Virus record (IMG/VR): IMGVR_UViG_2802429219_000011
Location: 1 to 18,574 of that record
DNA from: a virus
Lineage: Duplodnaviria > Heunggongvirae > Uroviricota > Caudoviricetes
DNA length: 18,574 nt
Strand: one strand, 5' to 3'
The position numbers and the translations under genes are program-made. The notes under the pieces are model-generated. The model was not told the origin of the DNA, did no database searches, and saw only the letters and a program-made list of their open reading frames with translations. Shown here piece by piece: positions 6,374 to 18,574 of this stretch. Every line of letters starts with the position of its first letter. Within the stretch, counting starts at the first letter, position 1.

Positions 6374-6529
6374 TTACTCCTCAGGTTCGTAAGCTGTGAA
6401 GACAGCGACCTCCGTCTGGCCGGTTCGGATTCGTACCTCGCAGAGGTCTTTCCTCGTTACCAGTGCCGTCACTATGACGGTTAAACAGATGACGATCAGG
6501 GCGATTAACATCGCCTTTTGCTGCTTCAT
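6374..6529 (-). CDS. hokD: Hok-family type I toxin (HokD/RelF-like)
   Basis: ATG at 6529-6527. Product MKQQKAMLIALIVICLTVIVTALVTRKDLCEVRIRTGQTEVAVFTAYEPEE: single TM helix plus the conserved Hok C-terminus (CE-R ... EVA-F-AYE). Matches my recollection of HokD. Confidence 0.85.
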   Translation of the reverse strand: MKQQKAMLIALIVICLTVIVTALVTRKDLCEVRIRTGQTEVAVFTAYEPEE

Positions 6530-6739
6530 AGCCTGCTTCTCCTTGCCTTTCGGCACGTAAGAGGCTAACCTACGTGTGCAAGTCATAGATATGGCCTCAG
6601 ATTAATGTTAAGCGTCTTGCAGGACGCGTAATGTTAACTGGGGCTTTTCTCTATCTGCCGTTGGTGTTCATGCCTGAGACAGATAGCCTCAAGCACCCGC
6701 AGCCATTCTACTTAACTATCCTTTTCCCGCAAATCGTTT

Positions 6740-8453: not shown

Positions 8454-8510
8454 GCTCCTCTCCTTTGATGCGAATGCCAGCGGTAATTGAAACCTGATAG
8501 CTAATTTCAC

Positions 8511-11317: not shown

Positions 11318-11719
11318 ATGATGAACGCCCTAGAAGTATCTATGTACAGAATCAGCAAGCTTCTTCAGGAAACTGGATGGAGCCAGGCTGAACTTGCCCG
11401 TAGAATTGGTGTGACACAACAAACAGTTCAACAATGGGTCAGCGGTAAGGCTACGCCTAAAGCCTCAAGTTTGGATAAACTGGTTGAGGTTACAGGGCAT
11501 CCATTGCATTGGTTTTTATTGCCTCCTGATGAGGGGGAGCAAATTTTCACCCCTGACACAATGAAAATTGGTCCTCGCCAACGCGAACTGCTCCAAGCTT
11601 TTAGTGCGTTTCCAGAGGAAGACCAAGAAAAAATGCTTCAAGAAATCAAAGACAAGAAAAAATCAATGGAAGAAACTATTGCCCGATGGTTGGCGGCACA
11701 AAAAAGCCGCCGGGCGTGA
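11318..11719 (+). CDS. Prophage repressor, XRE-family HTH (DicA/PaaR2-like)
   Basis: HTH segment SQAELARRIGVTQQTVQQWVSG. C-terminal region (SAFPEEDQEKMLQEIKDK) parallels DicA (NALPESEQDTQLAEMRAR) as I recall it. Divergent from cro-like and directly upstream of the antitoxin/toxin pair. Confidence 0.7.
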   Translation: MMNALEVSMYRISKLLQETGWSQAELARRIGVTQQTVQQWVSGKATPKASSLDKLVEVTGHPLHWFLLPPDEGEQIFTPDTMKIGPRQRELLQAFSAFPEEDQEKMLQEIKDKKKSMEETIARWLAAQKSRRA

Positions 11720-11746: not shown

Positions 11747-11938
11747 ATGAGTACAGCCCTTTCTCCGATAGTTTCAGAATTCGAAACTACCGAACAAGAA
11801 AACAGTTACAACGAATGGTTGCGCGCTAAAGTGACGTTAAGCCTTGCAGACCCTCGCCCCGCAATTCCACATGACGAGGTAATGGCTGAAATGGAAAATC
11901 TTATTGCTCAAATTGCTGCAACTAACAGGAGCGAGTAA
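11747..11938 (+). CDS. Small antitoxin (PaaA2-like, 63 aa)
   Basis: Stop overlaps the ParE start (TAATG). Size, position between a DicA-like regulator and ParE, and acidic composition fit the paaR2-paaA2-parE2 arrangement reported in E. coli O157 prophages. Confidence 0.55.
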   Translation: MSTALSPIVSEFETTEQENSYNEWLRAKVTLSLADPRPAIPHDEVMAEMENLIAQIAATNRSE

Positions 11939-12225
11939 TGTTACCCATTTTATGGCTACCATCTGCTCGCGATGATTTGCGTCAGGTCGTAACCTATATT
12001 GCTAAGGAAAACATTCCTGCAGCACGCAGACTAAAAATACGTATTGAAACGTCTGTTTTAACCCTCTCTGAGCACCCATATCTATATCCGCTAAGTGATC
12101 GAGTATCCGGTTTGCGGGAACTTGTGGTTCACCCTAATTATATCGTGTTGTACCGAGTAGCAACTTCAAGCATTGAAATTGCGAATATTGTGCATGCCCG
12201 TCGACAATTTCCCTTCTCTATCTGA
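11938..12225 (+). CDS. parE: ParE/RelE-superfamily toxin
   Basis: Product MLPILWLPSARDDLRQVVTYIAKEN ... LSEHPYLYP ... GLRELVVHPNYIVLYRVATSSIEIANIVHARRQFP fits the ParE pattern (W-P-A-DL---YI ... G-REL-V--NY---YR ... I-I--I-H-R). Confidence 0.8.
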   Translation: MLPILWLPSARDDLRQVVTYIAKENIPAARRLKIRIETSVLTLSEHPYLYPLSDRVSGLRELVVHPNYIVLYRVATSSIEIANIVHARRQFPFSI

Positions 12226-12793: not shown

Positions 12794-13432
12794 ATGGAAT
12801 TTAAAGAGTTACCAAAAGAAATCAAGGTGATTGCAGCGCATGCACTTTGTCAACGTCTGTCCGAAGTTGAATTAGAATCTGCAACGAAGAAAGACATTGA
12901 TAATATGGCTCGTAATGTGCGCGATGCGTTTACCGGATTGTATTTCTGTTCGTCTGTAAATAAACACGACTCAGAGAGTGTGGCAAAGAAAATTGCAGAA
13001 ACGACAGCGCAAAACATCAATACGAAACCAATGAAAGAAGAAATTGATCAGTTTGCTCATGATGCTGGTTTAAAAAACAAGAAAGAAAAATCGCCATACG
13101 CGGGAAATATGTTTGTTTATGACAATCTCATCAGAATCCGTGGCAAGATTCCGGCTGAATACCTGACAAAAGTTCATCAGGCATTGCTTAAGAACCTGGA
13201 AACAGAAGTATTTGATGGCAACGCCAACGGATCCTTCAGAGTGTCAACTCTTGCGAAAGAATGGGATACAGAGAATAGCTGGAATGTTGCGACGTGGATG
13301 TTCAGTAACAGAGCTTCAGCCCTGGAAGCAGCAACATGTATTTGTGACCTGTTAAAAGCAGACCACAAATACAACCTTGATGTATACAGCTATATTTACG
13401 CTGAACACTATCCGCTCTGGATTGACTGGTAA
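12794..13432 (+). CDS. Hypothetical 212-aa protein, AT-rich cargo gene in the ydfC position
   Basis: ATG at 12794 preceded by GGGGTTATAG. No motif recognised. Visibly more AT-rich than its neighbours. Stop abuts the stop of the convergent 69-aa gene. Confidence 0.6.
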   Translation: MEFKELPKEIKVIAAHALCQRLSEVELESATKKDIDNMARNVRDAFTGLYFCSSVNKHDSESVAKKIAETTAQNINTKPMKEEIDQFAHDAGLKNKKEKSPYAGNMFVYDNLIRIRGKIPAEYLTKVHQALLKNLETEVFDGNANGSFRVSTLAKEWDTENSWNVATWMFSNRASALEAATCICDLLKADHKYNLDVYSYIYAEHYPLWIDW

Positions 13433-13642
13433 TTACAGGGCGGTGCCAGCAGGGCCACGACGACCAACACCACGATTGTAATCAATGATGCCATTATAAA
13501 GCACATTGTTTAATTTATCGTCAAATGCTGATTTCGTGAGCCTTAACTCTGAATGGTTTTTTAATAACCCTGATTGCCTGAGTTGATTAACCAGACATTC
13601 AATCTGTTTTTCAATAAGCGGATGTATTGGTCTGTTTGGCAT
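13433..13642 (-). CDS. Hypothetical 69-aa protein, convergent with the 212-aa gene
   Basis: ATG at 13642-13640 with GGAGG 5-6 nt upstream (the ORF-track start at 13654 lies inside the SD). Product MPNRPIHPLIEKQIECLVNQLRQSGLLKNHSELRL...; no family recognised. Confidence 0.45.
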   Translation of the reverse strand: MPNRPIHPLIEKQIECLVNQLRQSGLLKNHSELRLTKSAFDDKLNNVLYNGIIDYNRGVGRRGPAGTAL

Positions 13643-13964
13643 TTTATCCTCCATTGAGGTTCTGGGTTAAAAATGGAGACCAACACGCTGCCACGTGTAG
13701 TCGTGCGCCGGACACGGATAAGAATCCGGCACTGACAGTTTACTGAAAGGATATATCCCTGAAAAGTCAGGGCATAACGCGAAAGCGCACGGCGAAGTTC
13801 TTCTGTCTGTACGGTGTCGTTAAATTTAATTCGACCGTGCGCTTCCGGTTGTGGCAATCCGCGAAATGGCGCGGCGGTAAGTATGGCGGGGTTATCCTTA
13901 CCCCATTAGTGGCACCGGGTTGTCAGGTTGACCATACGCCTGAGTGACAACCCCGCCACAACAA

Positions 13965-14026
13965 CCCATGTTGATTACCTTTTGGCGGGTATCCGTTTTG
14001 TTTTCCCCGTGATACCCGCCCTTTTT
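13965..14026 (+). ncRNA. DicF-like small RNA (divergent homolog), 3' end defined by an intrinsic terminator
   Basis: Perfect 10-bp stem GGCGGGTATC (13984-13993)/GATACCCGCC (14011-14020) with T5 at 14022-14026, in the conserved ydfABC-dicF-dicB operon position. TTTGGCGG-TATC ... CCGTGA ... CCGCCCTTTTT resembles my recollection of DicF. The 5' end is a guess. Confidence 0.4.
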
Positions 14027-14209
14027 AAAGTGAATTTTGTGATGCGGTGAATGCGGCTCAGCGCACGCGGAACAGTTAAAAAGGCCAGTTGACTTCCGTA
14101 TTGGTTCTTATGGGTGGGTTCTCTGTATCCGGCGTTAATTATTAACTGGTTAACGTCACCTGGAGGCACCAGGCACCGCATCACAAAATTCATTGTTGAG
14201 GACGCGATA

Positions 14210-14392
14210 ATGGAAACGTTATTACCAAACGTCAATACGTCTGAAGGTTGTTTTGAAATTGGTGTCAGAATCAGTAACCCTGTATTTACTGAAGATGCCA
14301 TTAATAAGAGAAAACACGAACGGGAGCTATTAAATCAAATATGCATTGTTTCAATGCTGGCCCGTTTACGCCTGATGCAAAAAGGACGCTGA
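14210..14392 (+). CDS. dicB: DicB cell-division inhibitor
   Basis: ATG at 14210 with GAGGA 8 nt upstream. Product METLLPNVNTSEGCFEIGVRISNPVFTEDAINKRKHERELLNQICIVSMLARLRLMQKGR, 60 aa, nearly identical to my recollection of DicB. Confidence 0.85.
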   Translation: METLLPNVNTSEGCFEIGVRISNPVFTEDAINKRKHERELLNQICIVSMLARLRLMQKGR

Positions 14393-14394
14393 CA

Positions 14395-14598
14395 ATGAAT
14401 ACAGCATTTGCACTCGTTCTGACAGTTTTTCTTAATACAGGCGAACCAGTCGATCTTGTTATTGGTATACATGACTCAATGAAAGAATGCATGGCTGCCG
14501 CAGCGGAACAGAAAATTCCCGGCAACTGTTATCCGGTTGATAAAGTTATTCGCATGGACAATAACGAAATCCCGGCAGGACTTAAAGCAGCACCGTAA
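14395..14598 (+). CDS. ydfD: YdfD-like small protein (N-terminal hydrophobic segment; lysis-associated in Qin)
   Basis: ATG at 14395 directly after the dicB stop, AAGGA upstream. Product MNTAFALVLTVFLNTGEPVDL ... KIPGNCYPVDKVI, consistent with Qin YdfD as I recall it. Confidence 0.65.
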   Translation: MNTAFALVLTVFLNTGEPVDLVIGIHDSMKECMAAAAEQKIPGNCYPVDKVIRMDNNEIPAGLKAAP

Positions 14599-17217: not shown

Positions 17218-17466
17218 ATGGCAAGACTTATTCTGCTCACTGAGTGGGCAAAAGAGGAATTCAGTGAACCGGTCCCTACTCCGGGTACGTTAAGTAAATA
17301 CGCTAAAGCCGGAATGATATTTCCTCTCCCCAAAAAAGTAGGAAGGCACTGGCGAGTGGATCCACGCGCTCGCTTTGTCGGAATGGTAAACAAGCCTGAG
17401 GTGATCGCCACAGATCACCCTGCTTTGAAGAGGATACTGGAAGATGGCGCGCCCGCGAAAATATAA
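17218..17466 (+). CDS. xis: Excisionase (lambda Xis-like)
   Basis: Product MARLILLTEWAKEEF ... AGMIFPLPKKVGRHWRV parallels lambda Xis (LTLQEWNARQ ... CRIFPPPVKDGREYLF). Overlaps the int start by 23 nt. Confidence 0.7.
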   Translation: MARLILLTEWAKEEFSEPVPTPGTLSKYAKAGMIFPLPKKVGRHWRVDPRARFVGMVNKPEVIATDHPALKRILEDGAPAKI

Positions 17467-18574
17467 AACCGATGTTCCGGGTTTATCTCCGTATTTTGAC
17501 AAAAGAAATAACAAAGTTTACTGGCGTTACAGGCATCCCATCACAGGTAAAAATCATGGACTCGGCAGTATTGACCAGAAACTGGCGGAAACCATTGCAG
17601 CAGAAGCGAACAGCCGTCTTGCCAGACAACAAATGGAGCAAATGCTCAGTCTGCAGGAGAAAATTATTAGTGATACCGGCGGCGCATCAACCGTTTCCAT
17701 TTTTCTGAATAATTACAGAAAAATTCAACAGGAAAGATATGAGAACGGAGAAATCAAGCTCAGCACGCTGAAACAAAAAGCGGCTCCTCTCAGGGTGTTT
17801 GATGAACGTTTTGGAGCCAGGCCGCTAGATGCCATAACCGTAAAAGATGTGGTATCGGTGCTGGAAGAATACAAGGCAAAGGGACATAACAGAATGGGAC
17901 AAATTTTCAGGAAGGTATTGATCGATGTTTTCCGGGAGGCTCAACAAACGGGTGATGTCCCGCCAGGCTTTAACCCGGCTGAATCGGCAAAAAAACCGCA
18001 AGTGCGGATATCAAGACAGCGACTGACTTTTGATGAGTGGATGATGATTTATAACGCAGCGGAAAAGGATGGTTACTTTTTACAGCGCGGCATGCTGCTG
18101 GCACTGATGACGGGCCAGCGTCTTTCGGATATTTGCAAAATGCAGTTTTCGGATATCCGGGATGGTTACCTTCATGTCGAACAGCAAAAAACAGGAGCCC
18201 GGATAGCCATTCCTCTGGCTCTGCGTTGCGACAAATTAAATCTGACCCTAGGTGACGTGGTGTCATCCTGTCGTGATTACATCCTTAGTCCGTGGTTATT
18301 GCACCATCATCACGCTAAGGGGATGGGTAAGCGCGGCGGGATGGTTAAACCAGCAACGTTAACAGTTGCATTTAAAAAAGCCCGGGATTCTGTGGATTAC
18401 AACTGGCGTGCTAATGGCACTCCACCCTCTTTCCATGAGCAAAGATCTTTATCAGAAAGATTGTTCAGAGAACAGGGAATTGATACCAAAATTTTGCTGG
18501 GTCATTCGAATCAAAAAATGACCGATATTTACAACGACGCACGCGGTAAGGAGTGGAAAAAACTGGTTATTTGA
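17444..18574 (+). CDS. int: Tyrosine recombinase, lambda-type integrase (complete; stop at the window edge)
   Basis: N-terminal arm-binding-like domain, core with R ... LLGHS ... TDIYNDARG placing the catalytic Tyr in the usual motif. 376 aa. Confidence 0.9.
   Translation: MARPRKYKTDVPGLSPYFDKRNNKVYWRYRHPITGKNHGLGSIDQKLAETIAAEANSRLARQQMEQMLSLQEKIISDTGGASTVSIFLNNYRKIQQERYENGEIKLSTLKQKAAPLRVFDERFGARPLDAITVKDVVSVLEEYKAKGHNRMGQIFRKVLIDVFREAQQTGDVPPGFNPAESAKKPQVRISRQRLTFDEWMMIYNAAEKDGYFLQRGMLLALMTGQRLSDICKMQFSDIRDGYLHVEQQKTGARIAIPLALRCDKLNLTLGDVVSSCRDYILSPWLLHHHHAKGMGKRGGMVKPATLTVAFKKARDSVDYNWRANGTPPSFHEQRSLSERLFREQGIDTKILLGHSNQKMTDIYNDARGKEWKKLVI

Follow-up and report, generated by a model that had tools for sequence, protein, structure and literature searches.

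Cell division is blocked by the prophage small RNA DicF, which also alters metabolism and tunes virulence in EHEC. The stretch of prophage DNA analysed here (18,574 nucleotides, hereafter the window) carries a non-coding interval rich in inverted repeats which ends, just upstream of the division inhibitor gene dicB, in a terminator hairpin resembling that of DicF. This raises the question of whether the locus encodes DicF itself, a small RNA directed at other targets, or an element that acts mainly on the transcript in which it lies. The interval was compared with its counterpart in Escherichia coli K-12, with related loci in IMG/VR and with complete E. coli genomes, and its predicted folding, processing signals and target pairing were assessed.

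Identity of the locus and gene order

Sequence and gene order place the interval in the early-left operon, of dicBF type, of a Qin-type lambdoid prophage, where it forms the intercistronic leader directly 5' of dicB and corresponds by homology to the ydfC-dicF-dicB intercistronic region of K-12 Qin. Alignment with the K-12 ydfC-dicB spacer, which the first-pass annotation had proposed as a check, gave a mean column identity of 89%; the terminal hairpin of the window coincides exactly with the K-12 dicF annotation, and dicB follows 184 nt downstream. The order DUF1391/ydfA, ydfB-like, leader, dicB, DUF1482 and exonuclease is common to the window, K-12 and other loci, so that the hairpin occupies the location of DicF between ydfABC-type genes and dicB. 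The coordinates of the features are collected in Table 1.

Table 1. Features of the leader and its surroundings, in window coordinates
Feature	Position	Strand	Remarks
CI-type HTH repressor	11318-11719		Upstream of the leader
69-aa ORF	13436-13642	-	phrog_4274, E 5.9e-43; hypothetical in the closest E. coli relative
5' leader part, optional module	13655-13772	+	GCCGGA...TCCGGC hairpin (13707-13730), GGATATATCC palindrome, CCCTGA/TCAGGG hairpin
Long hairpin	13773-13853	+	21-pair stem, hypervariable interior; candidate RNase III substrate
Putative RNase III cut	13847-13848	+	Position transferred from K-12 (L001:2749-2752, published 190-nt species) on homology and length
Three precursor-body hairpins	13859-13953	+	CCGCG/CGCGG (13859-13874), GGGG/CCCC (13888-13904), GGGTTGTCAGGT.../...GCCTGAGTGACAACCC (13917-13953)
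Slot 5' module AACCCATGTTGATTACCTTTT	13962-13983	+	Replaces the K-12 tail containing UUCUGGUGAC (alignment)
Type B hairpin and U-run	13984-14026	+	Intrinsic terminator; would be the 3' end of a putative small RNA
Slot-to-dicB spacer, structured dicB 5' UTR	14027-14209	+	88-99% identical across allele classes except for one indel region
dicB, cell division inhibitor	14210-14392	+	Pfam PF05358 DicB, E 1.5e-37; 3' of the slot terminator
DUF1482/YdfD protein	14395-14598		3' of dicB, as in Qin
recE-type exonuclease, 824 aa			3' of DUF1482/ydfD, as in Qin
Further ORFs	17218-17466 and 17444-18574		3' of the exonuclease

In addition to the repressor, a toxin-antitoxin pair and the DUF1391/YdfA protein are encoded upstream of the leader. 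Two small overlapping ORFs (11747-12225, +) lie between the repressor and the ydfA-like gene, and the closest E. coli relative (L002) has the second of them annotated as a toxin of the RelE/ParE family. The place of ydfC in K-12 is taken in the window by a 212-aa ORF (phrog_2151) and the convergent 69-aa ORF. The latter forms the left boundary of the interval on the opposite strand, lies outside the RNA element and belongs to no Pfam family; it meets the 212-aa ORF (12794-13432, +) head-on without a spacer. Elsewhere in the prophage, a full-length sok antitoxin RNA (6524-6698, -; RF01794, 109.5 bits) implies a hok/sok-type module, and two adjoining tRNA genes were recognised at 2046-2117 and 2124-2196 (-; Rfam tRNA, 64.5 and 73.8 bits).

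Folding and conservation of the leader

Reading of the sequence from 13300 to 14500 and an inverted-repeat search confirmed all the motifs listed in the first-pass annotation. These comprise the 10-bp palindrome GGATATATCC (13749-13758), the hairpin CCCTGA-AAAG-TCAGGG (13757-13772), the repeat GCGCACGG (13785-13792), which pairs with CCGTGCGC (13835-13842) and extends to 13 nt at 92% complementarity, and the perfect 9-bp pair formed by GGGTTGTCA (13917-13925) and TGACAACCC (13945-13953), followed by the terminator. Not every one of them is meaningful. The palindrome is at chance level, as about 0.4 are expected in 376 nt (our own arithmetic, 4^-5 per position), and it is not kept in K-12, where its counterpart is broken and reads GGATATTTCC; the CCCTGA/TCAGGG stem is also weaker in K-12. 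As a whole, RNA spanning 13690-14030 has a predicted folding energy of -128.1 kcal/mol, compared with -107.3 +/- 5.7 for 100 dinucleotide shuffles, none of which was as good (z -3.67).

Dozens of prophages have kept the long hairpin, the three hairpins behind it and the terminator. Positions 13700-13772 align with the 3' region of K-12 ydfC, and the 5' leader module is swapped for unrelated sequence in loci L123, L126 and L127. In the consensus fold, the GCGCACGG/CCGTGCGC repeat is part of the 21-pair helix 13773-13795/13831-13853, which is 97.7% paired in 25 diverse loci and encloses an interior whose sequence varies freely. The three hairpins that follow are 97-100% paired in 25 diverse loci, and the variants of the GGGG/CCCC hairpin, CTGGGG..CTCCAG and CAGGGG..CTCCTG, are still paired. 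Over the leader helices in the 25 loci, 97.9% of cells are paired, compared with 37-47% when the partners are slid. The covariation test on the same 25 loci found a single pair with a double change and no measure convincingly above shuffles, as the leader is too conserved and offers too little variation. A search for DicB relatives at one genome per species returned only seven loci, all from Escherichia/Shigella except one mislabelled MAG, and therefore supplied no distant leaders for covariation. The leader helices are conserved and compatible with the data, which falls short of proof. A consensus computed with alifold from 83 sequences was degraded by two deletion variants.

Several other candidates within the interval were considered. 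A long-range pairing of 13884-13896 with 13946-13958 fails because a G-to-T change in L013-type loci is compensated locally in the GGGG/CCCC hairpin and not at the distant arm. For a candidate antiterminator pairing (13952-13961/13980-13989) and a candidate closing helix (13848-13855/13955-13962), CA/TG variants still pair, though only through wobbles opposite invariant G and U. Small ORFs of 20-40 aa are disfavoured as genes by one-nucleotide and other non-multiple-of-three indels at the GGGG/CCCC hairpin in many loci. Natural deletions were also seen: loci L009 and L042 lack the long hairpin, with the junction at a repeated CGCGAAA, and retain the slot hairpin, and L134 and L177 lack the equivalent of 13861-13954, joining GGTTGTGGCAATC to AGCTACAAC, and retain the slot hairpin with dicB 3' of the slot. 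Neither the long hairpin nor the 13861-13954 block is therefore indispensable.

Processing signals

In K-12, DicF has no promoter of its own and is made only by processing of the dicBp polycistronic transcript, from which RNase III generates a 190-nt DicF species and RNase E a 53-nt species (PMC10448788). The major transcript, of 1,146 nt, stops at dicF, and a read-through transcript of 1,608 nt spans dicB-ydfD (PMC10448788). When 190 nt are counted back from the K-12 terminator, the position reached is L001:2749-2752, the 3' foot of the long hairpin, which by length corresponds to approximately 13847 in the window. The earlier suggestion that the upstream structures could be RNase III or RNase E sites is thereby strengthened with respect to RNase III, the K-12 190-nt species beginning, by length, at this foot. 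A cut near 13847 would give the 5' end of a precursor of about 178 nt ending at the terminator. The putative small RNA shares the setting of such a product: it lies inside a polycistronic unit, a long stem suited to RNase III is located upstream, an intrinsic terminator would form its 3' end, and no + strand promoter was found in a scan of 13400-14300. A put-like processive antiterminator was also considered and is unlikely, because a major transcript of K-12, 1,146 nt long, ends at the terminator of dicF.

The type B cassette at the dicF slot

The sequence occupying the dicF position is referred to as the slot, and the version in the window as type B. Its hairpin has a perfect 10-bp stem, formed by GGCGGGTATC (13984-13993) and GATACCCGCC (14011-14020), and is followed by C and TTTTT (14022-14026), so that the 3' terminal hairpin and U-run of a Rho-independent terminator, as known from DicF, are present. 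RNAfold adds two further pairs to this stem and leaves a U/C-rich loop; the 57-nt RNA 13970-14026 has a predicted energy of -19.7 kcal/mol, compared with -15.9 for K-12 DicF.

The covariance model suggested as a check does not recognise this element: Rfam DicF (RF00039) gave no match in 13400-14300 even at E<=10, whereas K-12 dicF scores 76.7 bits against a gathering score of 48, and family membership consequently fails on sequence and structure. Rfam searches of the whole window at gathering score, together with the search of 13400-14300 at E<=10, reported only sok, the two tRNAs and a sub-threshold STnc100 match. The alignment explains the silence of the DicF model, since between near-identical flanks the 5' UUCUGGUGAC is missing and the loop and 3' arm are different. 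Positional homology is not refuted by this result, as the model also misses five of the six other non-canonical classes at gathering score. The first-pass statement that the terminal segment resembles DicF consequently stands with respect to its exact dicF position and its flanks, which are about 90% identical, and falls with respect to the covariance model. The argument that RefSeq annotation is missing was rejected as evidence, because PGAP fails to annotate even perfect copies of canonical dicF.

What is shared with K-12 DicF is the position between ydfABC-type genes and dicB, the conserved upstream hairpins including the putative RNase III site, the stem base GGCGG/CCGCC, the CCCUUUUU tail and the downstream spacer. 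What differs is the 5' tail, where the K-12 UUCUGGUGAC is aligned in type B with a 9-nt gap and substitutions, and the loop and 3' arm. The K-12 3' arm is imperfect exactly where it pairs with ftsZ, whereas the type B hairpin is a perfect complement with a U/C-rich loop. Type B and K-12 DicF are identical in 43 of 64 aligned columns, and none of 1000 shuffles scores as well; without GGCGG/CCGCC, the hairpin interiors show no significant similarity, 139 of 1000 shuffles doing equally well. The residual similarity thus stems largely from the stem base and tail, and the homology to DicF is positional. A type B-specific scan of IMG/VR retrieved 51 contigs, in which dicB usually follows. Among these variants the stems are essentially invariant, loop length varies by T-run slippage, and UUUCCC is present in every variant seen.

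Allele diversity at the slot

The slot is an island of divergence. Over about 59 nt (13962-14020), the window is 61-67% identical to the other allele classes, and 80% to L002, with which it shares the 5' module; in comparison with class representatives, identity is 85-98% over the 117 nt upstream and 82-99% over the 193 nt downstream. Locus L002 matches the window at 98-99% in each of its flanks, yet carries hairpin C. Scanning IMG/VR with the two conserved flanks recovered at least 119 loci with at least 38 distinct inserts, and at least eight allele classes can be distinguished (Table 2), which combine 5' tails and terminator hairpins in varying ways. The 5' module of the window is found with a different hairpin in L002, and the B hairpin with another 5' module in L176. 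When the Rfam DicF model was applied at gathering score to loci of classes B to G, only class F, which keeps the canonical hairpin, was recognised (58.9 bits).

Table 2. Allele classes at the dicF slot
Class	Loci	Composition
A	K-12, the majority	Canonical
B	Window, L077, L101	Window type
C	L002, L120
D	L009, L125	Canonical 5' tail, new hairpin
E	L018, L129	Canonical 5' tail, short hairpin
F	L022	New 5' tail, canonical hairpin
G	L065
H	Shigella phage 75/02 Stx	Further allele

In the set of 5426 complete E. coli genomes, the 117-nt sequence preceding the slot was counted at 8476 places in 4270 genomes, the canonical cassette at 6599 places in 3953 genomes, type B at 163 places in 153 genomes (the exact allele in 11 genomes, among them E. 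coli ETEC4090, NZ_CP122620.1, and OkiPb01701, NZ_AP042598.1) and type C at 115 places in 92 genomes; these megablast counts require an exact 28-nt word and may miss some copies. Given the difference between leader and canonical cassette, roughly a fifth of slots may hold other, non-canonical alleles. A previous comparison was based on dicF sequences that were more than 99% identical (mSystems 2016), and the literature searched, including for the term "DicF-like", yielded no description of non-canonical slot alleles. The locus and its processing are already known. As a separate observation, Rfam matches above gathering score revealed genes for isrK and C4 antisense RNA at L065 1171-1359 and L042 4732-4920, a few hundred bases from slot alleles G (L065) and C (L042).

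A proposed processing site and terminator ahead of dicB

The best explanation, held with moderate confidence, is that the leader with the type B allele would function as a cis-acting processing site and intrinsic terminator ahead of dicB. Once the prophage repressor is lifted, a polycistronic transcript started upstream would cross the leader, and RNase III would cut the conserved 21-bp hairpin near its 3' foot. Most transcripts would end at the strong intrinsic terminator and release the RNA of about 178 nt, which RNase E could trim to a hairpin RNA of approximately 45-55 nt; the toxic dicB would be reached by read-through transcripts only. The element would thus act mainly in cis, by separating and destabilising the upstream cistrons and attenuating dicB, and the released RNA would be a positional homologue of DicF. 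The homology, synteny, conserved helices, allele diversity and loss of predicted pairing are what the analysis shows, and for type B we infer transcription, cleavage sites, termination efficiency and absence of trans activity.

The invariant stems and T-run slippage in the loop of type B suit a terminator better than a constrained seed, and the perfect-complement hairpin (-19.7 vs -15.9), the drift of the loop and the imperfect 3' arm of canonical DicF together fit a terminator without a constrained seed. Operon-internal attenuating terminators before toxic genes in lambdoid early-left operons share with this element a strong hairpin and U-run directly 5' of a division inhibitor, which is dicB here and kil in Shigella phage 75/02 Stx and phage Evi; the stretch examined revealed neither an antiterminator protein gene nor an element of the nut/put type. 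Besides covariation at control level and the crudeness of the pairing energies, two features of the sequence count against the cis-acting reading. The upstream gene content is unlike that of K-12, which obliges the operon transcript to pass through a convergent gene. Moreover, the U-run directly 5' of the type B hairpin and the 3' U-tail have what we take to be a likeness to an Hfq-binding module, and this, together with the UUUCCC kept in all type B variants, leaves room for a role in trans.

The alternative that takes up these last features is that type B RNA genuinely acts in trans as an Hfq-dependent small RNA, with a target set unlike that of DicF, the dicF slot being a swap-in position for alternative regulators. 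We regard this as possible, though not probable. On this view the replaced 5' tail and U/C-rich loop would give different targets, the order of U-run, hairpin and U-tail, as read from the sequence, is that of DicF, and the divergence island between conserved flanks, the reassortment of 5' and hairpin modules between loci, the change of hairpin between near-identical flanks in L002 and the constancy of UUUCCC would all be consistent with retargeting. These points are set against a loop length that drifts by slippage within type B and a hairpin that is perfectly complementary, as in a plain terminator, whereas the canonical DicF 3' arm deviates where it pairs with ftsZ. In addition, the search for targets of the type B loop and tail in the 18.5-kb window gave a best value of -22.5 kcal/mol compared with -23.4 +/- 2.4 for shuffled seeds, and hence no target beyond shuffled controls. 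A broader proposal, which we put forward as an unlikely and speculative one, is that the dicF position might be a modular swap-in locus in a near-invariant processed leader before dicB or kil, where at least eight alternative small RNAs would be assembled from interchangeable 5' tails and hairpin loops, each with different host or phage mRNA targets; type B with its UUUCCC loop would be one of them, missed by current annotation models.

Each outcome would have consequences for how the locus is read. Surveys so far have registered near-identical dicF copies only, and the Rfam model behaves alike. If the non-canonical RNAs are active, calls of DicF presence or absence mis-state the regulatory capacity of a strain, and the locus would constitute a natural experiment in small-RNA retargeting. 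If they are terminators only, as the cis-acting reading proposes, the alleles display the slot without the constraint of pairing with ftsZ and would help to explain the origin of DicF from an operon-internal terminator.

Predicted pairing with DicF targets

In K-12, the 3' region of DicF pairs with the ribosome-binding site of ftsZ and its 5' end with xylR (PMC5069750). Target pairing was predicted by a simple scan with crude, accessibility-corrected duplex energies (in kcal/mol), which recovers the canonical DicF sites published for both ftsZ and xylR. In canonical DicF, the predicted pairing engages nt 31-53 with ftsZ -28..-7 (hybrid -22.7, total -8.1), nt 5-14 with xylR +10..+20 (total -12.3; shuffles -2.6 +/- 1.1) and nt 25-43 with pykA -18..+1 (total -11.8), whereas the corresponding totals for the window RNA are -3.2, -1.2 and -4.5. 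The best sites of the window RNA on ftsZ have hybrid energies of -8.0 and -7.5 and totals of -3.2 and -2.9. On ftsZ, xylR and pykA, the targets examined in response to the earlier call for target prediction, the window RNA pairs no better than the mean of shuffled sequences. Since shuffled sequences cover values like the canonical ftsZ total itself (-8.1), no more can be concluded than that the canonical duplexes are gone.

The first-pass annotation was right that the element differs from DicF in the region that would pair with targets: according to the alignment and the duplex scan, both K-12 target-pairing segments differ. The 5' single-stranded UUCUGGUGAC that pairs with xylR is absent, and the 3' complementarity to the ftsZ ribosome-binding site, through which DicF has been shown by experiment to act, is lost in the prediction. 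Without the DicF 5' tail and the ftsZ-pairing 3' arm, type B RNA would most likely not be an inhibitor of ftsZ, xylR or pykA.

It is highly improbable that type B is a functional DicF orthologue that still represses ftsZ and whose sequence change is neutral. The common position, stem base and U-tail, the 43 identical columns and the capacity of the loop to form CGG-A-GAGAA / UUUUC-C-CCG with the ftsZ Shine-Dalgarno region (short form, hybrid -7.5) speak for an orthologue, but the Rfam DicF model is silent, the canonical ftsZ duplex falls from a hybrid energy of -22.7 to -7.5 or -8.0, the 5' UUCUGGUGAC has disappeared and the hairpin interior is not significantly similar once the stem base is set aside.

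The 69-aa ORF and the promoter question

It is very unlikely that these structures act at the DNA level, as promoter or operator of the antisense 69-aa gene, and are not RNA elements: the start of this ORF at 13642 would place a promoter in the left part of the interval, and the 10-bp palindrome could in principle bind a dimeric protein, but the lone sigma-70 match is weak and would start the transcript inside the ORF, positions 13700-14030 are conserved in K-12 and many loci without the 69-aa ORF, and the palindrome is at chance level and broken in K-12. The sole match scores 9/12, and its -10 element extends to 13641, over the ATG (13642-13640), so that a transcript would begin within the ORF. 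The earlier idea that the upstream structures form a promoter region for the 69-aa gene was therefore abandoned, as 13700-13772 is also kept in K-12 without the gene. A further sigma-70-like match on the minus strand (14207-14235; TTGACG, 17-nt spacer, CATTAT) overlaps the dicB start; at 9/12 it is at the level expected from shuffles, and transcription from it would run antisense across the dicB leader and slot toward the 69-aa ORF.

The spacer to dicB and related kil loci

Downstream of the slot, the Rfam family STnc100 (RF02076) matches 14033-14187 over model positions 21-154 of 206, at 33.5 bits (E 2.1e-5) and thus below the gathering score of 47 bits. K-12 has an STnc100 match at the same place, of 34.1 bits. 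STnc100 has been linked to prophage PasD sRNAs (Zhu, Shabalina and Storz 2026 preprint), and the dicB 5' UTR may be a distant member of this STnc100/PasD structured family. The match differs from the family in being sub-threshold, it is located outside the reported interval, and the region here is the 5' UTR of dicB or, in Stx phages, of kil.

The same slot and spacer precede kil, in place of dicB, in Shigella phage 75/02 Stx (L131 1500-1994) and in phage Evi (L133 824-1334). The former has yet another slot allele and is without the upstream RNase III-type hairpin, and in the latter kil is preceded by canonical dicF. Canonical dicF is also found in bona fide phages, Tritos being an example. 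The occurrence of slot and spacer before kil, together with canonical dicF in Tritos, makes the module a general leader for division inhibitors in lambdoid phages.
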